Of a stretch of DNA of 48,273 nt, positions 1 to 45,382 are shown in pieces. The stretch comes from Betaproteobacteria bacterium (GTDB lineage Bacteria > Pseudomonadota > Gammaproteobacteria > Burkholderiales > SG8-41). The stretch spans positions 1 through 48,273 of the forward strand of contig JACQOI010000055.1 of NCBI GenBank assembly GCA_016202615.1. The letters are read 5' to 3'. Numbering within the stretch: position 1 is the first letter of the stretch; every line of letters starts with the position of its first letter. Position numbers and translations under genes: made by a program. The notes under the pieces were generated by a model. That model saw nothing but the letters and a program-made list of their open reading frames with translations. It was not told where the DNA came from and did no database searches.

Positions 1-202
1 CTGTCGGACTTAGCATTTCGAACAGGCTGCTAAAGGCAAAACGGGCTGAAAATTCGACGTGAAGTTCCGCAGGAAGGCTCCATTACACGCACCGACGCAA
101 GTTTGCAGGGTTTTGGTGGCCATTGATTAGTACTTTTTGCTGGATCTTGCAGCCCGTTTTGCTTAAGGAGTTTGTCGGACCGCAAGTCCGACAAACTCCT
201 AG
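1..202 (+). repeat. Composite nested-hairpin intergenic element, copy 1 (left arm cut by window edge)
   Basis: Left arm CTGTCGGACTTAGC...ACAGGCTGCTAAAGGCAAAACGGGCTG (1-48). Right arm CAGCCCGTTTTGCTTAAGGAGTTTGTCGGACCGCAAGTCCGACAAACTCCTAG (150-202). Same architecture as 8358-8556, 25867-26066 and 38542-38653. Confidence 0.8.
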
Positions 203-5892: not shown

Positions 5893-6894
5893 ATGAGAAA
5901 CAAAAAGCAGCGGGTTCATTTATTTCTGGCGGGTGCAATTTTGAGCATTGCTGCGCCGGTGGCCTTGACGCAAACCGCCACCATAAGCGCGGCGCAAGCT
6001 TATCCGAGCAAACCGATCCGGCTGATTGTGCCTTATCCACCTGGTGGCGGCGCAGACATTCTCGCGCGCGCACTTGGGCAGAAACTCACCGAAACCTTCG
6101 GGCAGTCGGTGGTGGTGGACAATCGGGCGGGTGCAACCGGTATTGTGGGTACCGATATCGTTGCGAAAGCAGCGCCTGACGGGTACACACTGATCATGAT
6201 TACGAGCGACCAAACGATCGTCTCGAGCCTTTATGCCAAGCTGCCCTACGATCTGGTGGAGGATTTCGCGCCGGCGACCTTGGCGACTTCGCAGCCGTAC
6301 ATCATGGGCGTCCATCCTTCCGTAGCGGCAAAATCGGTCAAGGAGTTCATCGCCCTGGCCAAATCGAAGCCTGGCCAGTTAAATTACGCCTCGGGCGGAA
6401 ACGGGGGTACGCCCCATCTTGCCGTGGAGCAACTCAAGACTATGGCCGGGATCAACATGGTGCACGTGCCGTACAAGGGCGGAGGCCCCGCCCTTCTGGC
6501 GCTGATCTCGGGCGAGGTCGCGATGCTGTTCAGCAGCCTGCCTTCGACGCTGCCTCAAGTCAAAGCCGCCAAAGTCAGGGCGCTCGCGGTGAGCAGCGCG
6601 AAGCGCTCGCCCGCAGTGCCGGAACTGCCGACGGTGGCCGAATCCGGTGTGCCCGGATTTGCAGTCACCAGCTGGTATGGCATCCTGGCGCCCGCGAAAA
6701 CGCCAAAGCCGATCATTGCCAGACTCCACGCTGAAATCGTCAAGGAGCTGAATACACGGGAGTTTAGAGCGCGGCTTGCGAACGATGGAACCGACGTCGT
6801 GGGCAGCACGCCGCAAGCATTTGCCGATTTCATGAAGGCTGATATTGCCAAATGGGTCAAAGTGATCAAGGCGTCAGGCGTGCGTATGGATTGA
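5893..6894 (+). CDS. Bug family (TctC-like) tripartite tricarboxylate transporter substrate-binding protein
   Basis: 333-aa ORF with a signal peptide, then YPSKPIRLIVPYPPGGGADILAR, VDNRAGA, YKGGGPA and KWVKVIK. A GAGGAA RBS precedes the ATG. Confidence 0.9.
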   Translation: MRNKKQRVHLFLAGAILSIAAPVALTQTATISAAQAYPSKPIRLIVPYPPGGGADILARALGQKLTETFGQSVVVDNRAGATGIVGTDIVAKAAPDGYTLIMITSDQTIVSSLYAKLPYDLVEDFAPATLATSQPYIMGVHPSVAAKSVKEFIALAKSKPGQLNYASGGNGGTPHLAVEQLKTMAGINMVHVPYKGGGPALLALISGEVAMLFSSLPSTLPQVKAAKVRALAVSSAKRSPAVPELPTVAESGVPGFAVTSWYGILAPAKTPKPIIARLHAEIVKELNTREFRARLANDGTDVVGSTPQAFADFMKADIAKWVKVIKASGVRMD

Positions 6895-6939
6895 TAACTT
6901 TTGTTTCAATCGCGATTCATACAGACTGGGAGAATGGTA

Positions 6940-8325
6940 ATGGACGTTACCTCTCAACTCGGCACCTTTGCGGCGGGGCTCACTTATGCCGATCTTCCGC
7001 CCGACGTTCGGGAGCGGTGTCGGATGTCCTTTCTGGATGCGATCGGAATCATGCTCGGCGCTGCCGATTTCGCGAAACGTGACGGCGACCGGTGCCTCGA
7101 GACCTACCTTGAGGGGATGGCGCCGCCGGGCAAAGCGACGGTCCTCGGCTATGGTATCCGGACGACCCCGCTGATGGCGGCCTTCGCCAATGGCACCCTG
7201 ATGGAGGCGCTCGACTGCCAGGACAGCAACATGAAGGCCCTCATGCATAGCGGCAGCTCGGTCATTCCAACGGCGCTGGTGCTCGCAGAGACAAATCCCA
7301 TCACTTGGGCCGACCTCGTTCCCGCCATCATTGCCGGCTACGAGGTCCACACCCGGCTGATGTTGGCTGTTCAGCCGGGGCACTGGTACAAGGGCTTTCA
7401 GGGAACCGGCACCTTCGGCACCTGTGCGGCTGCGACGACCGCCGGCCGGCTGCTGGGTTTCGACGCCCGGCAGATGACCGCCGCGCTCGGGATCTCGGGC
7501 TTCATCATGCCGGTCTCGAACGGAGACAACCAATTCAAGGGTTACAACGTCAAGCCGGTCCACGGCGGCCAAGCCGCCATGTGCGGCCTGTCATCGGCCT
7601 ACATGGCGCAGGCCGGCTACCGTGCCGGCCCTCTGGAGGGAGAACCGCCGCGCCATCACGCGGCCCTCCACATCCTCAGCGATGGTCCCAACCTCGAGCG
7701 GACGCTCGCCGGCCTCAACGAAACTTGGCATACCCGAGACGTGGCTTACAAACCCTACCCGATCGGCCACTTTATCGTCGGGGTGATCGAACTGATCCTG
7801 GACATTCTTGCCGAACGGCGGATCAAGCCGGACGAAGTCGCTTCTGTCGAAGTCACGACCTACAAGGATGCGGTGACATCCACCGGCAAAAAGTACACGA
7901 CCACGCAGAGCAACCACGTTGATGCCCATCTGTCGATCCCCTATTGCGTCGCGGTCACCCTTGCGGATGGGCAAATGACGTCACGCCAGCTCCTCAAGGA
8001 CCGTCTAAGGGATCCGAAGCTGCACGAGCTGGCCTCACGGGTGATTGTGTCCGAAGATCCGACCATGACCAAGGCCTACCCGAATGAATGGCCGGCCAGG
8101 ATCGTCATCCGGCTGCACGGCGACGGATCCATCGAGCGGCAGATCGACAAGGTCAAGTGGTCGCCCCACCGGACCCCGACCTGGGCCGAGCTATCCGAGA
8201 AGTTTCATCTGATGGCCGACCCGATCATCGGCCCCGATCGCGCCACCCGCGCTATCGAAAACGTCGCCAAGCTGAAGGAAGGCAGTACCTTGGCATCCTT
8301 GATAATGACGCTGACGAAGAAATAA
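6940..8325 (+). CDS. MmgE/PrpD family protein (2-methylcitrate dehydratase-like)
   Basis: The ORF track gives 6901-8325 (TTG start). An ATG at 6940 sits about 7 nt after GGGAGA. N-terminal LGTFAAGLTYADLPPDV and the overall length are typical of the MmgE/PrpD fold. Confidence 0.8.
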   Translation: MDVTSQLGTFAAGLTYADLPPDVRERCRMSFLDAIGIMLGAADFAKRDGDRCLETYLEGMAPPGKATVLGYGIRTTPLMAAFANGTLMEALDCQDSNMKALMHSGSSVIPTALVLAETNPITWADLVPAIIAGYEVHTRLMLAVQPGHWYKGFQGTGTFGTCAAATTAGRLLGFDARQMTAALGISGFIMPVSNGDNQFKGYNVKPVHGGQAAMCGLSSAYMAQAGYRAGPLEGEPPRHHAALHILSDGPNLERTLAGLNETWHTRDVAYKPYPIGHFIVGVIELILDILAERRIKPDEVASVEVTTYKDAVTSTGKKYTTTQSNHVDAHLSIPYCVAVTLADGQMTSRQLLKDRLRDPKLHELASRVIVSEDPTMTKAYPNEWPARIVIRLHGDGSIERQIDKVKWSPHRTPTWAELSEKFHLMADPIIGPDRATRAIENVAKLKEGSTLASLIMTLTKK

Positions 8326-8771: not shown

Positions 8772-9761
8772 ATGACTTGCGGCGCCCGCCTGAGCCACGT
8801 GACGAACATACTCGCCCTGCTTGCGTTTGGCGCCGCTGCCGGCGTCGCGCAGGCCGCCGAACAAGCGTATCCGACCCGCCCCATCCGACTGGTCGTACCG
8901 TTCGCGCCGGGCGGTGGGGTCGACGCACTAGCGCGAAGCATCTCCCCGAAGCTGAGCACCGCCATGGGCCAAACCTGGGTCGTGGACAACCGCGGCGGTG
9001 CCAGCGGCAACCTCGGCGCCGAAATCGTCGCCCGTGCAAATCCGAACGGTTACACAGTGTTGATAGCGGTAGACAGCCAATTCACGGTGAATCCGAGTCT
9101 CTACAAGTTATCGTTCAGCGTCGAAACGGATCTGCAACCCGTCACCATGCTCGCCACGGCCGAGTACATCCTAGTTGTGCATCCGAGCCTACAGGCTACG
9201 ACGTTGAAGGAGTTCGTCGCTCTGGCCAAGCAGAAGCCGGGCGCGCTCAACTACGCATCGGGCGGCGTGGGCACCCCGATTCACCTGGCCGCCGAGTTGC
9301 TGAAAAAGCGCGCCGGGATCGATATAGTGCCCGTCACTTACAAAGGCGGCGGGCCAGCGGCTGCGGCCGTGCTCGCGGGCGAGACCCAGGTGCTGGTCGG
9401 CACCGTCGCCTCGACGATCGCATTCGTCACGGCCGGGCGGCTGCGCGCGCTGGCGACTACCGGAGCCAAGCGCTCCAAGGTGGCGCCGGACCTGCCAACG
9501 GTCGCCGAGTCCGGCTACCCCGGCTTCGAGGCGAGCCTGTGGCTTGCCCTGTTCGTGCCCGGCGCGACGCCGAAAACCATCGCGGAGCGCATCCGCAACG
9601 AGGCGCTCAAGGCGCTACAGCACGCCGACGTGCAGACCGCCATGGCGCGGCAGGGCCAGGAGCCCCAGACCAGCACGCCGGCGGAGCTTGCCGCGCGCAT
9701 CAAGGCGGAGACCGCCATCTGGGCTGGCGTCATCAAGGACGCGGGGATCCGCGTCGAATAG
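8772..9761 (+). CDS. Bug family (TctC-like) substrate-binding protein
   Basis: 329-aa ORF with a signal peptide, YPTRPIRLVVPFAPGGGVDALAR, VDNRGGA, YKGGGPA and IWAGVIKDAGIRVE. Confidence 0.9.
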   Translation: MTCGARLSHVTNILALLAFGAAAGVAQAAEQAYPTRPIRLVVPFAPGGGVDALARSISPKLSTAMGQTWVVDNRGGASGNLGAEIVARANPNGYTVLIAVDSQFTVNPSLYKLSFSVETDLQPVTMLATAEYILVVHPSLQATTLKEFVALAKQKPGALNYASGGVGTPIHLAAELLKKRAGIDIVPVTYKGGGPAAAAVLAGETQVLVGTVASTIAFVTAGRLRALATTGAKRSKVAPDLPTVAESGYPGFEASLWLALFVPGATPKTIAERIRNEALKALQHADVQTAMARQGQEPQTSTPAELAARIKAETAIWAGVIKDAGIRVE

Positions 9762-9931: not shown

Positions 9932-11335
9932 CTACGAGACCTTTGTCTCGATCGCACGGCTCCAAAGCGATGTGGCCGTCCGTACGTTCTCCAGATTCTC
10001 AAAATTAAAGGCCGCCTCGATCGTCCCGTCAATTTGCTTCGGAGCGAAGATGTCCGCGGCGTAGTGTCGGAACTTCTCCTTCAGCTCTTGGTCAGTTACT
10101 CGACCGTATTCCGACCACTTCTCCAAATCGTGCCCGTCAGCGGTCAACTTGACGCGCGTCTTGAGTGACCACGGAGATAGCGAGGCATCGTTCTCCATGC
10201 TGTGCTTCAGTTCTGCAATCGCGGCTTCGTCCCGCCTGAGCTGAACGTTTTCGGCGATTTTCGTCACGAGAGGGTCATTCAGGGCCGTTGACCACGACCT
10301 CTGGGGGATTCCGGCAACGACTGCGCCTACCTGATACGGCAGACTAAATTGGGCCATGATGTAATTCGTGACCTGAGCCGTTCCGAAAGCTTGCTCTGTG
10401 CCGATAGGCCGCCATATCTCAATTGCCCTAATGGACTGCGGGGCGATCTGGTGATCGGTGACGAGCCGAGCGATGGTGTGCAAGGCTTGTTGGTTGTGCG
10501 TTCCCGCAGGGTACCGTTTGAACTGAGACTCAAGTATCCACCACCGTCTGCCTAGTCCCTCCGTCAGCGCATCCCGGTCGTGAAGCCTCGTTCCCACGGA
10601 GCGGTAGTACCCGTCATTATCGTCCAGAATATTGGGATCTCCGGTAAAGCCTTCGCGAGCCAGCATCGCCGCGCTGAGAGCTGTGGCAGCCATGTTTCCC
10701 ATTAGCGGGCCGTACTTCGACAGGACTACAGTTCCCTTAGCAAAGAACGTCCGATTCGCCGGGGGCGCATGCACTCCTGTCATTGCCAAACAGTTTACAA
10801 TAGCTTCAGGGTCGAGCCCGAGCATTTTCGCTGACGAAGCCGCCGCTCCAAAGATGGTCCAGTGCAAGATCAGCTCATGCGTAAGATCCCGGTTGATTTC
10901 GGGTGGTAGCGCCAGTTTGACTCGTGCAGCTACCTCGAAACCGCATGCGATCGCCTCGAGCACCTGTCTTCCGGAAGCGCCCCGTTCTTCGCCGAGCGCG
11001 AGCGCTGTAAAAATGACGATGCCGGCCAACCCCTGCGACCACAATAAGTTGCTCGTAAGATCCAGCGAGATCGACATTTGCGAATTCGCAAACGCAGCGC
11101 AATACGGCGGCACTTTGTCGCTCATGCCGATAATCGTCGCGTCTCCGCCACCCCGGCCCGCCAACGCAACTCCCGTACGGGCCGCTATGACGCCGCCAGG
11201 GATTCTGTGGGCTGCGACGACCGTGGTCACGGCGTCAAGGATCTGTCGTTTGCACGCGTGCCTAACCTCTTCCGGCAGCTCGCTCCAAGACAGATCGTGA
11301 ACGAATGAGGCTAGACGATGAATAGCGTCAGTCAT
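9932..11335 (-). CDS. MmgE/PrpD family protein
   Basis: 467-aa ORF. The N-terminal LASFVHDLSWSELPEEVRHACKRQILD and the length are typical of the family. It is a paralogue of 6940-8325 and 24441-25838. Confidence 0.8.
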   Translation of the reverse strand: MTDAIHRLASFVHDLSWSELPEEVRHACKRQILDAVTTVVAAHRIPGGVIAARTGVALAGRGGGDATIIGMSDKVPPYCAAFANSQMSISLDLTSNLLWSQGLAGIVIFTALALGEERGASGRQVLEAIACGFEVAARVKLALPPEINRDLTHELILHWTIFGAAASSAKMLGLDPEAIVNCLAMTGVHAPPANRTFFAKGTVVLSKYGPLMGNMAATALSAAMLAREGFTGDPNILDDNDGYYRSVGTRLHDRDALTEGLGRRWWILESQFKRYPAGTHNQQALHTIARLVTDHQIAPQSIRAIEIWRPIGTEQAFGTAQVTNYIMAQFSLPYQVGAVVAGIPQRSWSTALNDPLVTKIAENVQLRRDEAAIAELKHSMENDASLSPWSLKTRVKLTADGHDLEKWSEYGRVTDQELKEKFRHYAADIFAPKQIDGTIEAAFNFENLENVRTATSLWSRAIETKVS

Positions 11336-13373: not shown

Positions 13374-15131
13374 TTACTGCGCTCTGGTGTTTTTCGCAGC
13401 CGCGAGCTTTTCGTCCCAATCGGCGGGTAACTCGATCTTGCTCGCAACGGCATAACCTATGGGGCCATTCGCGGCAAACACGTAAGCGGTGTTCCGCAGC
13501 GGATCACCGGTTACGGCGACAAGGAAATCGTCCGCCTCCCAGGCGATCGGAACCAGCCGATCGGGATCATCCGACTCGTAATAGAACTTCGGTATATGTC
13601 CGAGCCGGACTTCTTCAGCAAGGTTCCAGACCTTGCGATTCGTCCAGTCCCGCAGAATTCTTTCGAACTGCCAGGCAGGGATGCGAGCCTTCTGGAACAG
13701 AAACTCCTTGACGTCCTGCTTGGACCATCCAGCCGCGGCTATCATCTCGGCGAGCAAGGGGCTCAGGAGAATGAGGGGACGCAGCGCCCCACCCCCGTGC
13801 GACCCGACTGCGAACATGAGCTGCCATGTGTGCTCACGCGTGACGCCATCCGCAACATACGTAAGCAGTTCTTCAGGCGTTGTCCCCGATACCGATGACA
13901 ATGGATTCCCACCACTATAGCGCTGGATCAGGACGGTATTGTCCGAGGACTCGAAGCCCATCCCTACATTGTTGGGCGGCCAACCTATTTTCTTGAGAAC
14001 GTCCTCGTTCTCCGCAAGGACAACACGCCAGGTTCCGCCGTACGTGGCCTTGTCGTTACCGCCGATCAGGAAGCCCGCGACATTGCGCAGATAGAGGCGC
14101 CAGAATCGGCCAATTGATGTGTTCGGAAGTACGCCGTCGCGCAGCACGCCCTGCCCGTAATTGAAGCCCAGTTGCTTGATGATGGGTCCATTGAGAATGA
14201 TGAGCGTGTCGGAGCCCGGCGTACTGCCACTGTGCTCAACCCCGTATTCCGGGTCGAGCATGGCCTGCACCAATGCGACCAGGATGGGCATGTACTCGGG
14301 GCGACATCCGGCCATGACGCCGTTTACGGCGATGCTGCGCACTGTAGCCGCGCGGTTGTCAGGCAATACGATGCCGAGCACTTCAGCGGGCTTTCTGTCG
14401 GTGAACCCGAGAAAAGCCTCTATCTTCGCCTTTGTCGGCGGGACAATCGGCAGGCTGTCACTCCACTGGCGCGTGCGAAAGAACTCGTTGACTTCGTCAT
14501 GGCTGCCGGAAAACACGATTTCGCAGTCGCTGGGTTCGTCATCCTTGCCGAAATGGTCCGCTGCCGTTGCAGTAAGGTTCTGGATCACGCGATCGATCGT
14601 TATGCCCAGAATGTTCTTCTGCAGCACAGCGGTCGCCTGGACGGCGGGATGTCCCGGCAGCAAGGCCAGGGGAAGATCTGGCATGCCCAACCCCATGGAA
14701 CAGGCCGCGGCCTGCCCCATGAAACCTTCTGCCACGATCGAGGAAGACGGGATACCGCCGGCTTCCGCGGCTGCGCTGGCCCGCAACACGGCGGGCGTGC
14801 AGCTCCCTCAGGCGCCTACCGCAGCAATGGCTGCATCGACACCAAGTTCCTTGAATCGAGCCGGCAGCGCGGCAACCACTTCCCGTTCGTCATGTCCATG
14901 AGTGCTGCCGAACTCTTTCCAGCTGACGAACTTCATGTCCTTGAAGCGTGATTTCAATTCCTTTTCCATCCAGGCAAAGATTTCTTCACCCCGATAGAGA
15001 TAGTTCCAGACGAAAGCTATCGTCTTGCCGTCGAACGATTTCAGCCTGGGCGCGAGCGGTTTTGTCCTGACCTGCCGCGGACTTCTCGGCCAGTAGACTT
15101 CATAGTGCCCATCGTTCTCGCGTCCGCTCAT
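13374..15131 (-). CDS. Predicted selenoprotein: UGSC (UxxC) module fused to an uncharacterised AGCRPEYMP domain (585 aa with Sec at TGA 14808-14810)
   Basis: The ORF track splits it into 14808-15131 (…AAIAAVGA + TGA) and 13374-14789 (GTG-initiated). Both are in one frame. The codons between them read U-G-S-C-T-P-A with no other stop, and no RBS precedes the GTG. The same interruption occurs in two paralogues, and a SECIS-like hairpin follows the TGA. Confidence 0.8.
14771..14802 (-). promoter_or_regulatory. SECIS-like recoding hairpin, 5 nt 3' of UGA 14808-14810
   Basis: mRNA is CUGCAC-GCCCGC-[CGUGUU]-GCGGGC-CA-GCGCAG. It has a 6-bp perfect upper stem, a 2-nt bulge, a lower stem with 5 of 6 pairs, and a G/U-containing apical loop. 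Confidence 0.6.
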
Positions 15132-15175: not shown

Positions 15176-16144
15176 TCAATCGGGCTTGATGGCCGCCTCT
15201 TTGATGACTTTTGCCCAGAAGACACGTTGTGCCTTGATGTAGGCGAGAAATTCCGCTGGTGTCACAGACGAGGTGTCGAGCCCTTCTTTCTTGAGTCCGT
15301 CCCTGATACGCGGGGTGGCGAGGACTTTGGTGAGCGTGTCGTAAATCCGGTCTACGGTATTCCTGGGCGTTCCCGCAGGTGCAAGCACGCCCATCCAGGC
15401 GCGAACATCAAATCCGGGATATCCCGCTTCCCGCATGGTCGGGATGTCAGGGGCCTGCGATGAACGATTCGGCCCCGTGACGGCGAGTGCAACAAGCTTG
15501 CCGCTCGCAGCCTGGGGAAGCGATGAAGCGAAACTGCCGAACAGAAGCTGCACCTCGCCGGAGAGGATCGCCAGCGTTGCGGGACCGCCACCCTTGTAGG
15601 GCACGTGAACCAGGTCGATCCCGGCCATTGTCCTGAACACCTCAGCGGCGAGGTGGTTCGGGCTTCCAACGCCCGCGGAGCTATATAAAAAGGGGCTTGA
15701 TTTCGCTCGGGACACCAAGTCTTCAACGGAAGTGGCCCGCACTGACGGATGAACGACCAGCAGGTACTGCGCGGAGCCGATCAGCGTGATTGGCGCGAAA
15801 TCCTTCTCCGGATCAAACGTTATGTCGGTATAGAGGCTCGGGTTAACAACCAGCGCTGAGCTATGCCCGAGGAGCAGCGTGCATCCGTCGCTGGTCGCAC
15901 GAGCAACGATCGCTGTGCCGATGTTTCCCGCAGCGCCTGATCGATTGTCGATGACAATTTGTTGCCCTGTGGCCTCTCCCCAGCGGGGCGCCAGCAGCCG
16001 TGCCAGGGAATCTGCGCCGCCACCCGGCGGGAACGGGACCACCAGTCGAACCGCTTTGCTGCCACACTGCTGCGCGAGCGCCGTACCGGACATAAAGCAC
16101 GTCAGGGAAAAAACAATCACACTGAGAAGAGAATGACTATTCAT
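15176..16144 (-). CDS. Bug family (TctC-like) substrate-binding protein
   Basis: 322-aa ORF with a signal peptide, AVRLVVPFPPGGGADSLAR, IDNRSGAAGN, YKGGGPA and FWAKVIKEAAIKPD. It ends 44 bp upstream of the selenoprotein gene start. Confidence 0.9.
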   Translation of the reverse strand: MNSHSLLSVIVFSLTCFMSGTALAQQCGSKAVRLVVPFPPGGGADSLARLLAPRWGEATGQQIVIDNRSGAAGNIGTAIVARATSDGCTLLLGHSSALVVNPSLYTDITFDPEKDFAPITLIGSAQYLLVVHPSVRATSVEDLVSRAKSSPFLYSSAGVGSPNHLAAEVFRTMAGIDLVHVPYKGGGPATLAILSGEVQLLFGSFASSLPQAASGKLVALAVTGPNRSSQAPDIPTMREAGYPGFDVRAWMGVLAPAGTPRNTVDRIYDTLTKVLATPRIRDGLKKEGLDTSSVTPAEFLAYIKAQRVFWAKVIKEAAIKPD

Positions 16145-16179: not shown

Positions 16180-16755
16180 TCAGTCGATCTTAGCACCCGA
16201 ATCGCGCACGACCTTCGCCCATTTGCCGAGATCGGTTTTGAGAAACGCGGCAAACTGCCCGGGAGTGTTGTGTACGGGCTCTGCACCGAGCACCGCCCAG
16301 CGTTCTTTGATTTCGGGAAGCTGCACGATCTTGCTGATTTCCGAATGGAGCCGGTTGATGACCGCCGTTGGCGTGCCGGCCGTCGCCAGTACTCCGTACC
16401 AGACGAAAATCTCGTAGCCGGGCAATCCCGACTCGCCGATCGGCGGCAGCTCGGGCGCTGCCGAAGTGCGCCCCGCACCTGTCGTGCCGAGTGCACGCAG
16501 CTTGCCTGCCTTGACCTGCGGCAGCGCGATCGGCGCGCCGGGAAACATGATCGAAATCTGTCCGCCGAGCAAATCGCTGAATGCATTCGTCACGCCTTTG
16601 TACGGCACGTGCACGAGCTTGACGCGGGCGAGACTGTTGAACATCTCGCCTGCGAGATGCAGCGCGCTGCCATTGCCGGCGGACCCGTAATTAAGCTGCC
16701 CGGGTTTCGATTTTGCGAGCGCAATCAGCTCCTTCACCGATTTGACCGGCAGTAA
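16180..16755 (-). pseudogene. 5'-truncated Bug family gene (C-terminal ~190 codons only)
   Basis: Homology starts at ...LPVKSVKELIALAKSKPGQLNYGSAGNGS, normally around residue 120 of Bug proteins. The signal peptide and the PPGGG segment are missing. The breakpoint carries a 14-bp tandem duplication, CAGTAATCTGGGTC x2, at 16750-16777. Confidence 0.8.
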
Positions 16756-16899
16756 TCTGGGTCCAGTAATCTGGGTCGAAGTAACTTTCCTTGGCACGTG
16801 CGTTGATGCGGATAACCAAATTGCGAGTCGATATCCACATCCATCCTGGCATCGCGCGGCGTGCCAACCGGCGGTGAGGCCGACGACGCGGCACCGTGC

Positions 16900-18639
16900 T
16901 TACCTTCCCAGTTCGACGAGTCTGCGATCCCAGTCTTTCGGGAGCCGGATCTGCTTGCCAACTGGATAGCCGAGCAAGCCGTTATGCGCAAAGACGTACG
17001 CATTGTTGCGCAAGGGATCACCCGTCACCGCAATCATGAAATCTTCTGCTTCCCAAACAATCGGCACCATGCGGTTCGGATCGTCCGACTCGTAGAACAC
17101 CTTCGGTATGTGCCCGAGCCGCACTTCCTCTGCAAGATTCCAAACAGACCTGATGTTCCAATCGTGCAGCATGCGCTCAAACTGCCATGCCGGAATCCGC
17201 GCATGATCGAAAAGATAGCGCTTCAGGTCCGCCTTCGACCAGCCTGTCTTGGCAATCGTCTCCGCGATGATCGGGCTCAACACAACAAGCGGCCGCAGCG
17301 TTCCCGCATGCGGGCCCACCGTAAATATGAGATGCCACGAGGTCTGTTTCAACACCGCATCCGCAACGTAAGGAAGCATCTGTTCTGGCGTGGTGCCGGA
17401 AACTGACGATAATTGGTTGCCCCCGGTGTAGCGTGCGATGGTTACCGTGTTCTCGCCCGCGGAGAAACCCATCTCAACGCTGTTGGATTCCCAGCCAATG
17501 TTATTAAGAACGTCCTCGTTCTCCGCAAGCACCACCCGCCAGGTGTTGCCGTAGGTGGCTTTGTCATTTTTGTGATGTAGGAATCCAGCGACGTTCCGGA
17601 GGTACAGCCGGAAGAACCGGCCCACCGATGTATTGGGCAGAAGGCCGTCGCGCAGAACGCCCTGCGTGTAATTGAAGCCGAGCTGCTTGATGATCGGCCC
17701 GTTCAGGATGATGAGCGTATCACCCCCAGGCGTGTTGCCGCTGTGCTCGACCCCGTATTCTGGGTCGACCATCGCCTCGACCAACGCAACGAGGATCGGC
17801 ATGTACTCGGGGCGGCAGCCCGCCATCACGCCATTCACCGCGATGTTCCAGATGGTTGCGGCGCGGCTGTCAGGCAGAATGATGCCGAGCACCTCGTCGG
17901 GGTTGCGGTCGGTGAAGAGCAGGAACGCCTCGATCTTCCCCCTCGTCGGAGGAACGATCGGCAGCCCGTCGCTCAGCTCGTTCTCGCAGAAATAACGGTT
18001 CACCGCATCGAAGCCGCCCGCAAAAATAATGTCGCGCGCCCCAGGTTCCGGCTTCTCACTCGCCACCGTAGGTGTGCCGGTCAGGTTTGCGATGACCCGT
18101 TCAACGGTGCCTTCGAGAACAGCGCGCATCAGTTCCTCTTTGCTCTGCACGCCGGGGTGGCCCGGCATGCGCGCAATCGGCAGGTTCGGCATGCCGAGCC
18201 CGACGGAAATTGCCGCCGCCTGGCCGATGAAACCTTCTGAAACAAGTGATGACGAAGGAACGCCGGCTGCCTCGCATACTGCACTCGCCCGCAACACGGC
18301 GGGCGTGCAGCTCCCTCAAGAACCCATACCGGAGATGGCGGCGTCCACCCCCAGGTCCTTAAAACGCTGCGGCAGGGATGCGAGGACCTCGCGTTCGTCT
18401 CTGGCGTGCGTGCTGCCGAATTCGCGCCAGCTCACGAAGCGTACATCGGGAAAGCGTGCCTTAAGCCCCTCCTCAAGCCATCCGAAAACTTCGTCGCCGC
18501 GGTACACGAAATCCCACAACTGGGCAACGGTCTTACCCTCTAGCGTTTCGAGCCGCTTCGCTAGACGCGTCAACTGCACTTGCCGCCGACCGCGCGGCCA
18601 CAGCACTTCGTAGTATCCATCGTTGTTCACAGTAGACAT
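16900..18639 (-). CDS. Predicted selenoprotein: UGSC (UxxC) module fused to an AGCRPEYMP domain, paralogue 2 (579 aa with Sec at TGA 18316-18318)
   Basis: ORFs 18316-18639 (…AAISGMGS + TGA) and 16900-18297 are in one frame, joined by U-G-S-C-T-P-A. By eye it is about three quarters identical to 13374-15131 along the whole length. Confidence 0.8.
18279..18310 (-). promoter_or_regulatory. SECIS-like recoding hairpin, 5 nt 3' of UGA 18316-18318
   Basis: mRNA is CUGCAC-GCCCGC-[CGUGUU]-GCGGGC-GA-GUGCAG, giving 12 Watson-Crick pairs with a 2-nt bulge. The 29 nt after the UGA are identical to paralogue 1. Confidence 0.65.
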
Positions 18640-18692: not shown

Positions 18693-19685
18693 TCACTCGG
18701 GTTTGATGTCCGCGTCTTTGATCACTTTGGCCCAGAGCGTTTTTTCGGACTTGATGTATGCGGCAAAGTCCTCCGGCGTACTGCCGGAGGGCTCGAAGCC
18801 CGCTCTCTTGAGAGCCTCCTGCACCTCCGGCATCGAGAGGAGTTTCAGGAGGTCGTGGTTGAGGCGGGTCACGATGGCCTTGGGCGTGCCGGCCGGCGCA
18901 AGCACGCCGTACCAAGCCCGAACGTCGAAGCCCGGCAAGCCCGACTCCTGCATCGTCGGGACGCTCGGAACCTCATGTGAGCGCTTCGGCCCGGTGACCG
19001 CCAGCGCCTTCACGCTTCCCGCTTTCACATGCGGCAGCGATGAGGCGAAACTGCCAAAAAGGATCTTCACCTCTCCAGACAGCACGGCGAGGGCCACGGC
19101 ACCGCCACCCTTGTAGGCAACATGAATTATATCCACGCCGGCCCTGCCTTTGAAAAGCTCCCCCGCGAGGTGATTGGGGCTGCCGATCCCAGGCGACCCA
19201 TAGGGGAACTGACCGGGTTTTGACTTGAGCAGTACGATCAAGTCCTGCAGTGAGTTGGCTTGGACCGAGGAGTGCACCACAAGCAGGTACTGCGCGGATC
19301 CGAGGAACGCGATCGGCGCGAAGTCCTTCTCTGAGTCAAAGGGCAGATTCTTGTACAGGCTGGGGTTGACTACGAGCGGCGTGCTGAATCCCCACAGCAG
19401 CGTGTAGCCGTCGGGCTGCGCCCTCGCCGCGATTCCATAGCCGATGTTACCGGCTGCGCCGGAACGGTTGTCCACGATGACCCGCTGGCCCGCAAGTTCC
19501 GTCAACTTTAGCGCCACGATCCTTGCGAACGTGTCTGTCCCGCCGCCGGGTGGGTAAGCGACGATCAAGCGGATCGGGCGGCTTGGATAGCTCTGGGCAA
19601 CAGCGGTGTTGGCAATTAGGCAAGTTGCTAGGCCAAGTACGGCCGCCACCAGCGCTGCAATGGCCAATACTCGTAATTCATTCAT
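18693..19685 (-). CDS. Bug family (TctC-like) substrate-binding protein
   Basis: The track ORF extends to 19853 through a repeat. A plausible start is the ATG at 19685 (MNELRVLAIAALVAAVLG..., preceded by GGAAGAGGAGGA). The protein has YPSRPIRLIVAYPPGGGTDTFAR, YKGGGAV and LWAKVIKDADIKPE. Confidence 0.85.
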   Translation of the reverse strand: MNELRVLAIAALVAAVLGLATCLIANTAVAQSYPSRPIRLIVAYPPGGGTDTFARIVALKLTELAGQRVIVDNRSGAAGNIGYGIAARAQPDGYTLLWGFSTPLVVNPSLYKNLPFDSEKDFAPIAFLGSAQYLLVVHSSVQANSLQDLIVLLKSKPGQFPYGSPGIGSPNHLAGELFKGRAGVDIIHVAYKGGGAVALAVLSGEVKILFGSFASSLPHVKAGSVKALAVTGPKRSHEVPSVPTMQESGLPGFDVRAWYGVLAPAGTPKAIVTRLNHDLLKLLSMPEVQEALKRAGFEPSGSTPEDFAAYIKSEKTLWAKVIKDADIKPE

Positions 19686-19707
19686 CGCGATTCCTCCTCT
19701 TCCATCG

Positions 19708-19867
19708 AGAAATAGGAAAATCAATGCGCCCGTCGCCGGCGTCCTGTGACTATGCAACGCTGCAGCGATGCCGGATCGGTGCTCGGTGCGCCCGATCGGG
19801 GCTGCCCGCGCGTGCTCCACCGTCCGCGTCCGTCCTGCCCAGGTGCTTTGCAAAGTCGTTGCGGCAA
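19708..19867 (-). repeat. R repeat, copy R1 (160 bp)
   Basis: AGAAATAGGAAAATCAATGCGCCCGTCGCCGGCGTCCTGTGACTATGCAACGCTGCAG...CTTTGCAAAGTCGTTGCGGCAA. By my count it differs from R2 (20403-) by 4 substitutions and one 3-nt indel. It fills the gap between the PNPOx-like gene and the Bug gene. Confidence 0.9.
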
Positions 19868-19898: not shown

Positions 19899-20327
19899 TT
19901 ACGCTTCCCGCTGCATGATCACCTTGCGCGTCTCAATGACTTTGTCCACGCGGATGATGACTGCCGTGCCCTTGCGCTCTGGGTCACGGTCAAGTTCCGC
20001 CTGAACCGTGCGCGCCATGACGGCGTCGCGCAACTCCCCGCTTGGGTGAAGTTCCGCAACGCCCACGAACTTCCAGGTCTTGCGCGCAGCCGGATTCCGG
20101 TAGAGCAGGCATATCTTCGGATTCTCTTTGAGCGCCAGCTCGGTCTGGCCGTGGGACCGTTCCCAGAAAGCGAGGTGCTCGCTGTCCCATACCATCACGC
20201 TCCCCTTGAAAACGACATCGGGTACGCCATTCGCGAGCGCCGTAGCCACCATCACCGGATTCCCGTCCGCAAGCGATGTCGCAAGCATTGCCTTCATCTC
20301 TTCTGTTAGTGCAATCATCCCGTTCAC
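19899..20327 (-). CDS. Pyridoxamine 5'-phosphate oxidase-like FMN-binding family protein
   Basis: 142-aa ORF. Its size and segments (NPVMVATALANGVPDVVFKGS, ICLLYRNPAARKTWKFVG) fit the small split-barrel PNPOx-like family. Assignment is from recollection. Confidence 0.55.
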   Translation of the reverse strand: MNGMIALTEEMKAMLATSLADGNPVMVATALANGVPDVVFKGSVMVWDSEHLAFWERSHGQTELALKENPKICLLYRNPAARKTWKFVGVAELHPSGELRDAVMARTVQAELDRDPERKGTAVIIRVDKVIETRKVIMQREA

Positions 20328-20402
20328 TTTCCTGATCGTTTTCCACGGTGGAAACGCTACGCATGGGTAATGTGCTACAGAATCTTACCCCTGTTGCTAC
20401 AA

Positions 20403-20667
20403 AGAAATAGAAGGAAAATCAATGCGCCCGTCGCCGGCGTCCTGTGACTATGCAACGCTGCAGTGATGCCGGATCGGTGCTCGGCGCGCCCGATCGGGGC
20501 TGCCCGCGTGTGCTCCACCCTCCGCGTCCGTCCTGCCCAGGTGCTTTGCAAAGTCGTTGCGGCAAATTATGCAGTCCCCGGGCGCGCCAAGTCAAACGCA
20601 GGGCGCGCCGCCCTGCGCCCACGTAACCTTGGCACCGGTAGCGAACTCGGTGCTTAGTTGCTCGCTT
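20403..20667 (-). repeat. R repeat, copy R2 (long form)
   Basis: It shares the 160-bp R1 core and a further ~100 bp (GCGGCAAATTATGC.GTCCCCGGGCGCGCCAAGTCAAACGC...CCTTGGCAC.GG.AGCGAACT.GGTGCTT.GTTGC) with R3. It is contiguous with the IS91-like fragment at 20657-20835. Confidence 0.85.
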
Positions 20668-20835
20668 TATCGACCAGAAACTCCAGCACCGCACGCCGAA
20701 AGCCCTCAGCAAGCAGACTTCCCGGCACAGCCGGCAGCGTGACAAAGCGCCCATCGGGCAGCAATGCTCCGTCGGCGGCGAGCACGGGTACGTGCGGGTT
20801 GAAGTTGACGAGAAGGCGCAGTATGCGTCACCTCA
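20657..20835 (-). pseudogene. Internal fragment of an IS91-family (Y2 HUH) transposase
   Basis: Minus frame reads RLLVNFNPHVPVLAADGALLPDGRFVTLPAVPGSLLAEGFRRAVLEFLVDKASN*. This resembles the HUH region of Y2 transposases as I recall it (LNFHPHxHxLVxDGxxxxDGxFxxLP......LxExFRxxVLxxLVxK). The HUH histidines are partly degraded and stops lie on both sides. Confidence 0.5.
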
Positions 20836-20969: not shown

Positions 20970-21968
20970 CTAATCCGCGCGTATGCCAGCAGCTTTCACC
21001 ACTTTTGCCCATTTATGAAATTCACTATTAACATAGGCACTGAACTCTGCCGGCGAGCTGCTGACGGCGGGGGCAAGACCACCTGCTGCATACTGTGCCC
21101 TTACATCCGGCAACTTGATTATTCTCGAAATCTCGGCATGTATTTTGTCTATGATTTCCGTGGGCGTTCCGGCGGACGCGAATAAACCGTACCACGCCCG
21201 CACATCAAAGCCGGGAACACCCGCTTCGCTGACAGTGGGGACGTCTGGGATCGATGGGTCGCGTGTATTGGCTGTAATTGCCAGCAATCGCAGTCTTCCC
21301 GTCTTTATGTGTGGCAACACTGGCAGATTGCCCGCAAACATTAGATCGATACGACCAGCCACAAGGTCGACGGTATACTGTGGGCTGCCTCGGTAGGGAA
21401 CATGGACCATGCTCACTGCAGCCATTGATTTAAAAAGCTCGCCAGCCAGGTGAGTGGTCGACCCGGTTCCTCCAGAACCGTAATTGAGCTGTCCGGGTTT
21501 TGCTTTCGCCAAAGCGATCAGTTCTTTCACTGATTTGACGGGTAACGATGGGTGGACAACCAAAATCAAGTACGTCGTTGCGGCGAGGGAGATAGGCGCA
21601 AAATCGCGCAGGGTATCGTACGGGATTTTCTTATAGAGGCTCGCGCTCACCGCGTTAGTGCCGGGCGTCCCGAGCAACAAGTTATAGCCATCGGGCGGCG
21701 ATTTGGCGACGATCTCCGCTCCCAGGAGCCCGCCGGACCCTGCGTGGTTGTCTACGATCACGGGTTGGCCCCATGCCTCCGAAAGCTTGGTTGCAATCGG
21801 CCGTGCAATGACGTCGAGCACGCTGCCTGGAGGAAAAGGGTTGACGATTCTTACGGCCTTTTCCGGGTAGCCTGCGCCAAGACAAGGCAGTGCCGCAAGC
21901 AACGTAAACGCGCAAACCAAGGGTTTAGACGGCATAGCTTTGCACCTTGAGAGGATATTCCCGGACAT
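20970..21968 (-). CDS. Bug family (TctC-like) substrate-binding protein
   Basis: 332-aa ORF (alternative start at M12, 21935) with a signal peptide, AVRIVNPFPPGSVLDVIAR, VDNHAGSGG and KWAKVVKAAGIRAD. Confidence 0.9.
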   Translation of the reverse strand: MSGNILSRCKAMPSKPLVCAFTLLAALPCLGAGYPEKAVRIVNPFPPGSVLDVIARPIATKLSEAWGQPVIVDNHAGSGGLLGAEIVAKSPPDGYNLLLGTPGTNAVSASLYKKIPYDTLRDFAPISLAATTYLILVVHPSLPVKSVKELIALAKAKPGQLNYGSGGTGSTTHLAGELFKSMAAVSMVHVPYRGSPQYTVDLVAGRIDLMFAGNLPVLPHIKTGRLRLLAITANTRDPSIPDVPTVSEAGVPGFDVRAWYGLFASAGTPTEIIDKIHAEISRIIKLPDVRAQYAAGGLAPAVSSSPAEFSAYVNSEFHKWAKVVKAAGIRAD

Positions 21969-22055: not shown

Positions 22056-23072
22056 TCAAATTCCCCGAATAATCCGCGTCTGCGGCATCCCCGCTGCGAT
22101 ATAGACATCCTGGGGACCGGGTCCCCCGGCAACCACGACACAGATTTCATCCGGACCACCGGATCGCCACACCGTTTCCGCATCGCCTCGGCCGGCCGCA
22201 CGTGCGGTCGCAACGAAGGCCTTGGGGAAGTAGCTGGCCGGAAGGCGAGCGAGCTCCCACAGTCGCTGCTGGATGTCTCGCTTCGAAAGGCCCTCTTCAT
22301 ATAATGAATGAACATGGTTGACCCCAAGCAGCAGTAGCACGCCGCCGCCGCCAAACATAGGCGGCATGCTGGTCGCAATCTGACGCAGCGTTTCGTCTGC
22401 GCCGACACCGTCCCCACCCGAGATATTGCAGAAGTTGAAAGCCCTAAATACGGTGACGGTGCTGTCCTCGCGCTTGAAGCCCCGATCGACGTGGAACGGC
22501 GTCCAGGGATTCTCTTCTTCGTTTTCACCGCACATATAAGAGTAGCGCAGCGGAGAGCTGAAACTGGATTTGGAGTAAACGCCAGGCAGCGCTCCGCCCA
22601 CGTTCAGCAAGATGAGACGCATGGCGCGGCCTATCGTGGTATTGGCACGCCAGCCAGGGCCGAGGCAACCAATCCCACAGTTGATGTCGAGCTTTCCCCG
22701 CACGGGGCCGTTGACCAGCAGAAAGGGGGCCATAGCGTTAGTGCCGATCTGCAGCGGCTCCAACGGAAACCGCGGATCGCTCAACGCTTCGACGGCCGCG
22801 ATGATGACGGGCATATATTCCGGGCGGCATCCAGCCATGATGGCATTGACAGCAATTGCTTCTACGGTCGCAGGCCCTTTGCGCGGCGGCAAGACACCAA
22901 TGATTTCATTTCCGTCCCGCCCGGATGCTTGGACAAACTGCGCGACGCTCTCGTGAGTGGCCGGGATGATGGGGGCACCATCGGTCCAACCCTGGTCGTA
23001 GGCATGTTCAAAAGCGCACGTGATGAGTTCGGCCACCGAAGCAGCTTCGATATCCATGTAAGGGCGCGTCAC
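22056..23072 (-). CDS. Uncharacterised AGCRPEYMP-domain protein, stand-alone homologue of the C-terminal part of the two fused selenoproteins
   Basis: 338-aa ORF. TDGAPIIPATHESVAQFV...IAVNAIMAGCRPEYMPVIIAAVEAL...LLVNGP aligns with SDSLPIVPPTKAKIEAFL...IAVNGVMAGCRPEYMPILVALVQAM...IILNGP of 13374-15131. It starts 17 bp after the UGSC gene stop. Confidence 0.75.
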   Translation of the reverse strand: MTRPYMDIEAASVAELITCAFEHAYDQGWTDGAPIIPATHESVAQFVQASGRDGNEIIGVLPPRKGPATVEAIAVNAIMAGCRPEYMPVIIAAVEALSDPRFPLEPLQIGTNAMAPFLLVNGPVRGKLDINCGIGCLGPGWRANTTIGRAMRLILLNVGGALPGVYSKSSFSSPLRYSYMCGENEEENPWTPFHVDRGFKREDSTVTVFRAFNFCNISGGDGVGADETLRQIATSMPPMFGGGGVLLLLGVNHVHSLYEEGLSKRDIQQRLWELARLPASYFPKAFVATARAAGRGDAETVWRSGGPDEICVVVAGGPGPQDVYIAAGMPQTRIIRGI

Positions 23073-23089: not shown

Positions 23090-23752
23090 CTACACCGGAA
23101 TCGATGAGCGAACGATACCCCGGGGCCGAATTTGCTCTTTGGCCATATCCCTGGATCGACGCTCGATTTCGCCTGGCTTAAGCGTAAGCCCGTCAATGAT
23201 CGTGGGCAGCATGGCTTCGACTCGTGCGCGCAGGGCATCAAAGTCAAGCTCGCGAATGGGATTCTTTGTTTCAGCAATAACGATGTAAGGAAATCCCTGC
23301 GTCGACGCCATACGCCGCCCGAACTTGGCAAACGTATCGGTGGCGATCATGACTGTGGGAATGCCGCGTTGTTCCAGCGCCGGCGTAACGTGGCTACACC
23401 ACGTCGTGCATGACCCTCAATCGCCGGTGGCGGTAATGGCGACGTCAACGCGTCGTGCGAGCGCGTCCAGGTGCTCCCGCATCCCGTCGAGCAGCTTTCC
23501 CTCCTTGCTTGCCGGCGCTTCGCGGACCGGTTGTTCCATCACGATTGCTTTCACGCGGTAGCGCTCCTCAAGCAGTGTGCCAAGAACTTTCAGGATGCGC
23601 ACTGCCGATGGACGCCAGTTGGCCACCAGTCCTACCACTTTGTCGTCAAGGCTCGGAGGCCGTGGGGCGAGCGCGTTCGGAGCGCCTTCGTCAAGATAAT
23701 CAGCAAGTGGAGAAACCATTCTCAATTTAAGGTAACCCATAGCACATTCCAT
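23090..23752 (-). CDS. Predicted stand-alone UGSC (UxxC) selenoprotein (220 aa with Sec at TGA 23417-23419)
   Basis: ORFs 23417-23752 (…VAITATGD + TGA) and 23090-23350 are in one frame. The bridging codons read U-G-S-C-T-T-W-C-S-H-V-T-P-A-L-E-Q-R-G-I-P-T-V with no stop. The N-terminal start choice (23752, 23740 or 23719) is uncertain. Confidence 0.75.
23388..23404 (-). promoter_or_regulatory. SECIS-like hairpin, 12 nt 3' of UGA 23417-23419
   Basis: mRNA is ACGUGG-[UGUAG]-CCACGU, a 6-bp perfect stem with a G/U-containing loop. It is shorter than in the other two copies. Confidence 0.45.
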
Positions 23753-24440: not shown

Positions 24441-25838
24441 TTATTTCGTAAGGGTCAGCTGAACGAGTGCGTCGGCCCGGTCGTGTTGGTCGAGATCGCG
24501 ACAGGTCGCAATAATCGATTCGAACTGAGCCGCGGGGATCGGTAAGCCTGGAATGACGCCGCGAATGCGGCGCGCCTCCTCCTCGAAGTCCCACATGAAC
24601 TCGCGCCCGGTGGACTGCTTCGTATAGCTTTTCCCATCCTTGGTATAGATCGTGATCCGCGGACCGAAGAGCGTCATGTGGTGCGACGGAATGATCGTCA
24701 CCCGTTTCATAAGATCAAGTACCTCCGGGGGGTCGTCGGCGGCGGTCGGCTTGACCCCGGAGCTCCGCAGCACGGGAAAACCCCGTTTCACGACTCCGTA
24801 CGCGGCGTAGTAGGACGTGCTTCCCGGCGCCCGCGTTAGATCTTCCCTCCGGATCGGGAAAGCGGGGCTCGGGTACTGCGTCTCGAGCCAGTTCACCACG
24901 GCCTCGACGCGATCAACATCTTCATATTTGATGTTGTTCTCCTCGCAAAGCTTCGCCGTCACCTCGACGTGAGCAATGTTGTAGCCGGCAGTCGAGTAGA
25001 TGCGGTAGAGCGTTTCGAGAAAAATCCATGTCTTGCCGAGGTCGGCGGTGATCTTCGCCAGGCTCGTTTTCGTGTCGCCGACAAAGCTGTAGGTAAGCCG
25101 GCCCAGGTTGTTTCCTGCGTACGCGTGATAAAAGCCCGCGTCGCCTTCGAGTACGGTCTCGCCGCCCACGTGCCCCTGCTGCGCCAGCGCGATCGCGAGC
25201 ATGGCATTGCGCGCTGCCGCGCCTTCACGCAGCGCGCGGCCTCCGCTGCGTATCCCTTCGAGGTTGCCTCCCGCCAGGCTCGCGCAGAGCGCGATCGCGC
25301 TGTTCATCTGCTCTTCGGTCAAACGCAGGATCTTCGCGGCCGCTACTGTAGCGCCAAAGATGCCGAACACCGGACCCGCGTGGAAGCCGCGCGACATCAC
25401 CGTCGGAATGAAGTCGGCCGCCATCCGCTCCATGACCTCGTAGCCGGCGGCGATTCCGGTGATGAAGTCGCCGCCCGACGCGCCTGCCGTCTCGGCTGCG
25501 ACGAATGCCGCCGGAATAATGCTCGTGCCCGGGTGGGTCAGCATGCGGAAGGAATCCAGCTTGCCGCCGGCCATTGCCATCTCCGAGTTGGCAAACGCGG
25601 CGCCGCCTCTCGTCACCTTGGCGCCGTTCACCATAATGGTTGCGCCATTGCGCACGCCGGCTTCTTCTTCGCTGATCAGCTTCACGGCCTGCTGCCCGGC
25701 GGGTGATTGAGAGCCGAGGAGCACCGAGGCGAGCCCGTGTAGTGTCACGCCCTTCGCACGATCGATCACTTCGGGCGGAACATCTTCGTAGCGCAGCCCG
25801 ACGGCCCACTGCGCGAGATGACGACTTAGAGATGCCAT
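24441..25838 (-). CDS. MmgE/PrpD family protein
   Basis: 465-aa ORF. The N-terminal LSRHLAQWAVGLRYEDVPPEVIDRAKGVTLHGL and the overall length are typical of the family. Confidence 0.8.
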   Translation of the reverse strand: MASLSRHLAQWAVGLRYEDVPPEVIDRAKGVTLHGLASVLLGSQSPAGQQAVKLISEEEAGVRNGATIMVNGAKVTRGGAAFANSEMAMAGGKLDSFRMLTHPGTSIIPAAFVAAETAGASGGDFITGIAAGYEVMERMAADFIPTVMSRGFHAGPVFGIFGATVAAAKILRLTEEQMNSAIALCASLAGGNLEGIRSGGRALREGAAARNAMLAIALAQQGHVGGETVLEGDAGFYHAYAGNNLGRLTYSFVGDTKTSLAKITADLGKTWIFLETLYRIYSTAGYNIAHVEVTAKLCEENNIKYEDVDRVEAVVNWLETQYPSPAFPIRREDLTRAPGSTSYYAAYGVVKRGFPVLRSSGVKPTAADDPPEVLDLMKRVTIIPSHHMTLFGPRITIYTKDGKSYTKQSTGREFMWDFEEEARRIRGVIPGLPIPAAQFESIIATCRDLDQHDRADALVQLTLTK

Positions 25839-25866: not shown

Positions 25867-26066
25867 CTAGGAGTTTGTCGGACTTAGCACCGACAAACTC
25901 CTAATGCAAAACCGGCCGCGGGCAAAAGGGACAAAAAGATGACCAACGTGCAAATTTACCCTCGCTTTTCTTGCCGTTCGACTGCCGCGGGGGTTTTTGA
26001 TCCGCATATTCGGCCGGTTTTGCTTTTAGCAGCCTGTACGGACTGTTAAGCCCGACAGGCTGCTAG
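25867..26066 (-). repeat. Composite nested-hairpin intergenic element, copy 3 (inverted orientation)
   Basis: Hairpin B (CTAGGAGTTTGTCGGACTTAGCACCGACAAACTCCTAATGCAAAACCGGCC), a spacer, then GGCCGGTTTTGCTTTT and hairpin A (AGCAGCCTGTACGGACTGTTAAGCCCGACAGGCTGCTAG). It overlaps the stop codon of the Bug gene at 26063. Confidence 0.9.
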
Positions 26067-27067: not shown

Positions 27068-27116
27068 TTTTGATTGCGAAATGGAATAACACCGCGTGGC
27101 CTTGCGGTCTTTTCGT

Positions 27117-29051: not shown

Positions 29052-29170
29052 GGCTTTCCCTCCGGGGGAAGATGATGCTGCAGAAGCTCGAGCAACTGCG
29101 GCCAATTTTACAACATTGTTCAAGGACCGAATTCGCTCGATGCTATCTCGAAAATTCTCAAACGGCAATT

Positions 29171-45328: not shown

Positions 45329-45382
45329 TTCGGGTAGTATGAATCGTAACCAATAGGAGGGAAACGTGGACAAACTCATCAT
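45250..45382 (+). repeat. Direct repeat copy B (partner 41205-41323)
   Basis: See 41205-41323. This copy spans the 3' end of the capA-like gene, the intergenic leader, AGGAGGGAAAC, the GTG and the codons for DKLII of the tctC-like gene. Confidence 0.85.

Follow-up and report, generated by a model that had tools for sequence, protein, structure and literature searches.

This study concerns three putative selenoprotein genes, and the RNA hairpins that follow their in-frame UGA codons, on a 48-kb contig of a Betaproteobacteria metagenome-assembled genome (JACQOI010000055.1; the whole stretch of 48,273 nt is called the window below). The contig contains three minus-strand reading frames with a single in-frame UGA each (15131-13374, 18639-16900 and 23752-23090), and in all three deduced proteins the UGA corresponds to the U of a U-G-S-C motif. 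The gene of paralogue 1 (P1; 13374-15131) encodes a UGSC domain fused to a C-terminal domain, here denoted domain X, and would give a protein of 585 aa when read through the UGA at 14808-14810 (residue U108). The gene of paralogue 2 (P2; 16900-18639) encodes the same UGSC-X fusion with 579 aa and has its UGA at 18316-18318, also residue U108. Paralogue 3 (P3; 23090-23752) is a standalone UGSC protein of 220 aa, with the UGA at 23417-23419 (U112). Its partner is a separate minus-strand gene, X3 (22056-23072), which is homologous to the C-terminal domain of P1 and P2 (35% identity, E 5e-42). The order of a standalone UGSC gene and then an X gene is kept in 74 of 80 orthologous loci.

Each UGA is followed by a potential hairpin. 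All three UGSC features lie on the minus strand, and nucleotides are numbered with the U of the UGA as nt 1. The P1 and P2 hairpins share one layout, which comprises a lower stem (nt 9-14/35-40), a 2-nt bulge, an upper stem (nt 15-20/27-32) and a 6-nt loop. The P1 hairpin extends from C9 to G40 (14771-14802) and reads CUGCAC-GCCCGC-[CGUGUU]-GCGGGC-CA-GCGCAG, with the upper stem at 14796-14779, the loop CGUGUU at 14790-14785 and a single mismatch in the lower stem, A13.C36. The P2 hairpin (18279-18310, upper stem 18304-18287, loop CGUGUU) has a perfect 12-bp stem plus the 2-nt bulge; its lower stem is free of mismatches (3' arm GUGCAG). The P3 hairpin (23387-23405) has a 7-bp stem (nt 15-21/27-33) and a loop with G23 and U24. 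The original prediction, which had been made from the sequence alone, had placed all UGAs and hairpins at the correct coordinates on the minus strand. It had described a shorter hairpin for the third copy, which was recovered as ACGUGG-[UGUAG]-CCACGU at 23404-23388 and can be extended by one additional pair, G15.U33 (23405/23387); at this position 80 of 81 sequences have a G-C pair.

The UGSC family and the selenocysteine codon

All three proteins matched the UGSC family of Pfam (PF24696) with E values of 4e-26, 4e-27 and 3.9e-39 and with scores of 92.5, 95.8 and 135 bits (gathering cut-off 25), and one domain spans the UGA (residues 11-168/187). The best NCBIfam match of all three was NF041046, 'UGSC family (seleno)protein'. 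The scores of 47.8 bits (P1), 46.4 bits (P2) and 103.9 bits (P3) stayed below the equivalog cut-off of 125 bits, and the three proteins therefore represent divergent UGSC subfamilies that are related to NF041046 and not the equivalog itself.

UGSC-containing proteins have been published as a selenoprotein family of unknown function (NAR 2007, PMC1976440). According to the GOS metagenome report (PLoS Genet 2008, PMC2398784), they are among the most abundant selenoproteins, with 255 selenocysteine (Sec) forms versus 21 Cys forms, and the same paper includes a 'UGSC/Unknown_1' fusion. The window proteins resemble the published family in the UGA-encoded U of the U-G-S-C motif and in the large excess of Sec forms over Cys forms. 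P1 and P2 resemble the published fusion in being joined to a conserved domain that has a conserved Cys and no known function. The fusion form was thus already on record, and the window genes add members to a known selenoprotein family.

In 13 full-length homologues the UGA-GSC of the window corresponds to CGSC, and the respective codon in their DNA is TGT or TGC; the UGAs of P1 and P2 align with this Cys. For the fused type, a search with a single genome for each species yielded 80 loci. They contain 82 fused genes and belong to Beta-, Alpha- and Gammaproteobacteria, Chloroflexi/Dehalococcoidia and Acidobacteria, including the cultured Steroidobacter flavus CGMCC 1.10759 (L071). With 57-66% protein identity these orthologues are not near-identical copies, and the codon is TGA in all 82. 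For the standalone type, a metagenome scan yielded 80 loci, and TGA was found at the Sec codon in 80 of 80. Elsewhere on the contig TGA is used as an ordinary stop codon and ends 14 of the 31 family-supported genes; therefore it is not globally reassigned and the genetic code is standard. These comparisons support the reading of all three UGAs as Sec codons in a known selenoprotein family.

The public annotation of the contig reads the codon differently and splits two of the three UGSC genes at the UGA. Only the parts downstream of the UGA were called, each as 'hypothetical protein': HY525_02555 (471 aa; 13374-14789, P0001) and HY525_02575 (465 aa; 16900-18297, P0012), both on the minus strand and both starting with a GTG 18 nt past the UGA. 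The same cut recurs in the database, where about 100 of the best 120 among more than 3,500 relatives are annotated as products of about 465 aa. If the UGA were indeed a true stop, each locus would consist of two genes, and the hairpin could serve translational coupling, re-initiation or attenuation. The separate downstream genes in the public record and the normal use of TGA as a stop on this contig would be in line with such an arrangement. However, the reading frame is continuous, one Pfam domain extends across the UGA, Cys homologues occur as full-length single chains, TGA occupies the Cys-equivalent codon of the UxxC motif in 162 of 162 orthologues, and the family has been published as one of selenoproteins (PMC2398784, PMC1976440). 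A true stop is thus considered highly improbable. Reading through the UGA replaces the two cut hypothetical proteins by selenoproteins of 585 aa and 579 aa.

A fourth match to the pattern TGA-GGN-WSN-TGY, at 46159 on the plus strand, was rejected as a chance match; it is out of frame in a gene for a TctC protein (tripartite tricarboxylate transporter), and its frame contains many stops.

Three additional observations were made around the Sec codons. Residues 101-138 of P3 (window 23300-23450), which contain the Sec site, showed a weak match to PrdB, the D-proline reductase selenoprotein (TIGR04483, E 3.5e-4), a hint that the UGSC domain may be distantly related to the UxxC region of PrdB/GrdB. 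In the fused orthologues (L001-L080), the Cys codon directly upstream of the UGA was UGU in 70% of cases versus 13% gene-wide; through this bias the codon context may influence Sec decoding or termination. The window copies differ at this position and have GCC (Ala, 14811-14813) and TCT (Ser, 18319-18321), not Cys. Lastly, two fused UGSC-X genes within about 3 kb of each other were also present in L039 (114, 3863) and L056 (488, 3307), and therefore tandem paralogues are recurrent.

Nucleotide conservation of the hairpins

Orthologues for the analysis of RNA-level selection were collected with peptide patterns that lie outside the hairpins, and therefore the conservation described below is not an artefact of the collection. 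The alignment of the fused type contained 84 sequences (83 distinct). Within the hairpin the wobble bases were almost completely fixed, with G in 78, C in 80, C in 84, G in 84, G in 84 and G in 84 of the 84 sequences at nt 15, 18, 21, 24, 27 and 30, respectively. Outside of it, the wobble positions nt 6, 9, 33, 42 and beyond varied freely. The same result was obtained with the synonymous entropy, which was 0-0.44 bits for codons +4 to +9 and 0.9-1.9 bits in the flanks. The hairpin codons include rare ones, i.e., UUG for Leu (0.91 at the site versus 0.13 gene-wide) and CGG for Arg (1.0 versus 0.19). The lower stem showed a similar bias in its 3' arm, where AGU for Ser (0.80 at the site versus 0.07 gene-wide) and GCA for Ala (0.59 versus 0.09) were enriched and GCC for Ala was depleted (3 of 71), as the pairs A13-U36 and U10-A/G39 would require. 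When the structure of the original prediction was laid over the alignment, 94.9% of the cells were paired, versus 22-54% when the partners were slid by 1-3 nt. An alternative register of the lower stem given by RNAalifold (pairs 11-36 and 12-35) was rejected, because C would be better than U opposite G11 at nt 36; the enrichment of AGU, which supplies U36, suits the pair A13-U36.

The alignment of the standalone type contained 81 sequences (71 distinct). The 21-nt core ACGACGUGGUGUAGCCACGUC (nt 13-33) was essentially invariant, and the stem was without variation. The synonymous entropy of codons +4 to +10 was 0-0.11 bits. Ser was encoded by AGC (1.0 at the site versus 0.08 gene-wide) and Cys by UGU (1.0 versus 0.5). 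All seven pairs were present in the sequence's own minimum-free-energy fold for 63 of 64 standalone sequences. A lower stem around the UGA (nt -8..-3 with 35..40) was also considered for this type and was rejected; its two variable positions were paired in only 33/70 and 45/70 sequences, and there was no covariation.

The covariance model of the fused type (CM R1) gave 65.8 bits for P1 and 74.4 bits for P2, and it did not detect the P3 site. Therefore, the contig carries two separate hairpin classes that are unrelated in sequence. They share only the start of the stem at nt 15, a G+C-rich helix of 6-7 bp and a loop of the form N-G-U-R. Across all 165 sequences no indels were found, and G15 opens the upper stem in both types.

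Seven distinct Cys-type genes, which encode the same peptide (GSCTPAV[ILVM]RAS), served as a control. At wobble nt 15, 18, 21, 27 and 30 they had three or four different nucleotides each, the hairpin was present in the minimum-free-energy fold of none of the seven, and with the covariance model, which had been built from the Sec-type alignment, they scored only 26-32 bits versus 65.8 and 74.4 bits for the window sites. Therefore, the frozen nucleotides go with the UGA, and not with the protein sequence or a codon preference. The contrast is strong evidence for RNA-level purifying selection that is specific to the UGA-containing genes. The original prediction had postulated selection on the RNA itself from the comparison of two paralogues, and this view was supported by the frozen wobble bases in the hairpin, the varying flanks and the Cys-type contrast.

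Alternatively, the protein or the codon usage could account for the conservation, such that an essential redox motif, GSCTPAVLRA, is encoded by preferred codons that happen to pair. The peptide after the U is indeed highly conserved, and most stem pairs join a wobble base with a fixed first or second codon base; therefore, protein constraint adds to the sequence conservation. As the driving force it is nevertheless very unlikely. The Cys-type homologues keep the peptide but vary the wobble bases and lose the hairpin, and the fixed codons (UUG, CGG, AGU, GCA, AGC) are rare and not preferred ones. In addition, three sequences (L024, L030 and L048) have the changes G15>A and C32>U, which keep the pair 15-32 at the cost of an exchange of Ala for Val.

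P1 and P2 are identical in the 29 nt after the UGA, as the original prediction had noted. Together with the UGA this is the longest identical run of the gene pair (32 nt), and the next longest has 23 nt. Over the whole gene 66% of the nucleotides are identical, as are just 43% of the synonymous codons. In 204 of 20000 label shuffles a run of at least 10 identical codons occurred anywhere in the gene, and the probability of such a run at the UGA site itself was about 5e-4. A recent duplication or gene conversion could have produced the identity, with the hairpin being incidental; the two genes are only 3.5 kb apart on the same strand, and a conserved patch between neighbours resembles a conversion tract. 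This explanation is rated as extremely improbable. The same nucleotides are kept in 82 orthologues of several phyla with saturated flanking synonymous sites, the remaining sequence of P1 and P2 is only 66% identical, and the hairpin of P3 is a different one, yet equally frozen. As judged from the alignments, the identity of P1 and P2 is family-wide conservation and not peculiar to these two copies.

Comparison with bacterial SECIS elements

The position and shape of the hairpins were compared with known bacterial selenocysteine insertion sequence (SECIS) elements. The bacterial consensus of bSECISearch (Zhang and Gladyshev, 2005), in the form quoted in PMC13188914, has a small apical loop 16-37 nt past the UGA, with a G at one of the first two loop positions that is often followed by G or U. 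In the window the gap between UGA and loop is 17 nt (P1 and P2) or 18 nt (P3), the loops have 5-6 nt, and both loop sequences, C-G-U-G-U-U and U-G-U-A-G, have a G at position 2 followed by U. No difference between the three hairpins and this consensus was found in any feature that could be compared. The loop wobble bases were invariant in all 84 fused and all 81 standalone sequences.

In the fdhF element of E. coli, the essential upper stem-loop comprises nt 15-31, begins 11 nt from the UGA and contains G23 and U24 in the loop as well as a bulged U17 (PMC8659212). As in fdhF and fdnG, the window hairpins lie in the coding region directly past the UGA, and their upper stems start at nt 15, a distance of 11 nt. 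The loop bases G23 and U24 are matched exactly in P3 and are shifted to G22 and U23 in P1 and P2. A lower helix that extends toward the UGA is optional in the E. coli elements (PMC8659212); in P1 and P2 the lower stem begins 5 nt past the UGA, and P3 differs in having no conserved lower stem. The upper helices of the window are perfect, G+C-rich and 6 and 7 bp long, unlike that of fdhF, and the sequences are unrelated.

Thus, each hairpin is very probably a bacterial SECIS element located within the coding sequence of a selenoprotein gene of the UGSC family. The SECIS assignment and the likeness to fdhF had both been part of the original prediction, and they are supported by the family membership, the consensus geometry and the spacing. 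Decoding would be expected to follow the E. coli and bacterial-consensus model. SelB, carrying GTP and selenocysteyl-tRNA(Sec), would bind with its C-terminal domain to the upper stem-loop, 11 nt past the UGA and with the G-U in the loop, as the ribosome approaches. In the fused type the lower stem would melt as the ribosome advances. The tethered tRNA would be at the A site when the UGA arrives, and Sec would be inserted without termination by release factor 2. The predicted products are proteins of 585, 579 and 220 aa with a U-G-S-C redox motif. By the same analogy, selA, selB, selC and selD would be located elsewhere in the genome.

Several results weigh against a SECIS function or leave it with less support than could be expected. 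The 60-nt folding energy after the UGA was not above that of dinucleotide shuffles (z = 0.10, -0.84 and 0.17), and in a 60-nt context 24 of 83 fused sequences favoured another minimum-free-energy fold. Folding had been suggested as a check in the original prediction; the P2 hairpin is present in the minimum-free-energy structure. In a sequence of 60% G+C the fold alone proves nothing, and the support comes from the comparative data. The classical covariation support for the stem is weak as well. Double-sided changes were found at two pairs only, 9-40 (CG>UA) and 15-32 (GC>AU), in three sequences each, and each probably represents one event; the observed number of double-change cells was reached in 5 of 500 shuffles. 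Compensatory changes are few because the upper stem hardly varies. Of the two signs anticipated for orthologues, the conserved stem was therefore clearly present and the compensatory substitutions only weakly so, and the main evidence consists of the suppressed synonymous change and the Sec-versus-Cys contrast rather than of compensatory changes. The window hairpins also lack the bulged U17 of fdhF. A comparison with covariance models, which had also been proposed, failed to identify them; the Rfam SECIS families gave no match, neither with the whole window at the gathering score nor with 91-nt pieces at E <= 10. The bacterial SECIS families of Rfam describe elements of the same class, and neither hairpin type is covered by a curated model. 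No tRNA(Sec), selA, selB or selD was found on the 48-kb contig, a result that covers this contig only. Finally, Sec insertion in this subfamily is a prediction from sequence.

In other systems, read-through of a stop codon can be promoted by a stable hairpin past it. A selenium-free read-through by a near-cognate Trp or Cys tRNA, with a hairpin that merely pauses the ribosome, would fit this general knowledge and the lack of Sec machinery on the contig, but it is hardly credible, because the unpaired loop wobble bases C21 and G24 (fused) and U24 (standalone) are invariant, therefore indicating sequence-specific recognition and not mere stability, and because the spacing and the loop G-U fit the SelB-dependent consensus.

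The hairpins are candidate SECIS elements of an ordinary kind in a selenoprotein family that is already known, and no new mechanism is involved. The current understanding of Sec decoding is unchanged, and the use of the results lies in the correction of annotations and in a detection model. The hairpin consensus sequences ACGCCCGCCGUGUUGCGGGC (fused) and ACGACGUGGUGUAGCCACGUC (standalone) are not matched by any Rfam model, and a covariance model built from both would allow the automatic recognition of a large UGSC family. The features that are common to two unrelated SECIS classes on one contig also provide a compact guess at what the SelB of this organism needs.

Domain X and the gene neighbourhood

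Domain X comprises about 390 residues. It is the C-terminal part of P1 (13374-14530) and P2 (16900-18040) and is encoded by the separate gene past P3 (22056-23072). It contains an invariant Cys in NGVMAGCRPEYMP. No match to domain X was found in Pfam, in NCBIfam or among PDB sequences. An AlphaFold model of a Cys-type homologue (P0003, pLDDT 85.9) had no Foldseek match in the PDB at E <= 0.001; only a local, sub-threshold likeness to flavodoxin-like and other alpha/beta (Rossmann-type) domains was seen, for which the part of the model covered is not specified. Domain X is probably the 'Unknown_1' of the 2008 GOS paper, this identification being provisional.

Genes for TctC binding proteins are located within 3 kb in 42 of the 80 loci of the fused type and in 32 of the 80 loci of the standalone type. 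A gene for a thioredoxin-reductase-like protein (Pyr_redox_2, about 305 aa) adjoins seven of eight Cys-type genes (L161-L168) and 24 of 80 Sec-type fused genes (L001-L080), and none was found in the window or near the standalone-type genes. It is possible that this protein is the reductant for the U/C-G-S-C motif. The association suggests that UGSC, domain X and their neighbours form a redox module.

It is tempting to go one step further. Across at least five bacterial lineages the hairpins are frozen nucleotide for nucleotide, even at unpaired loop bases and in rare codons, and they might be more than routine SECIS elements. The UGSC-X module might move by horizontal transfer with a 'universal' SECIS that is accepted by very different SelB proteins, or the RNA requirement, and not the protein chemistry, might dictate the peptide T-P-A-V-L-R past the UxxC motif. 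Independently of this, UGSC, domain X, TctC and the thioredoxin-reductase-like protein might together constitute an uncharacterised selenium-dependent reductase system. Such an extended role is regarded as unlikely.

In the window, TctC and TctA frames are interleaved with the UGSC genes. Eight TctC frames are present (5893-6894, 8772-9761, 15176-16144, 16180-16797, 18693-19853, 20970-21968, 26063-27184 and 45366-46469), and TctA is located at 42743-44257. The TctC frame at 16180-16797 (minus strand) matches the profile at positions 85-272 of 274 only, and the space up to the stop codon of P2 would not hold a full-length gene; it is probably a truncated remnant. Two further minus-strand frames between TctC genes, 19990-20364 (124 aa) and 20419-20754 (111 aa), had no match in Pfam or NCBIfam. 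The window also contains three paralogues of the MmgE/PrpD family and a tungsten-type aldehyde:ferredoxin oxidoreductase (6901-8325, 9932-11335, 24441-25838 and 27117-29168). As listed, the oxidoreductase frame shares 68 nt with the TctC frame next to it, and one start codon of this pair is probably wrong.

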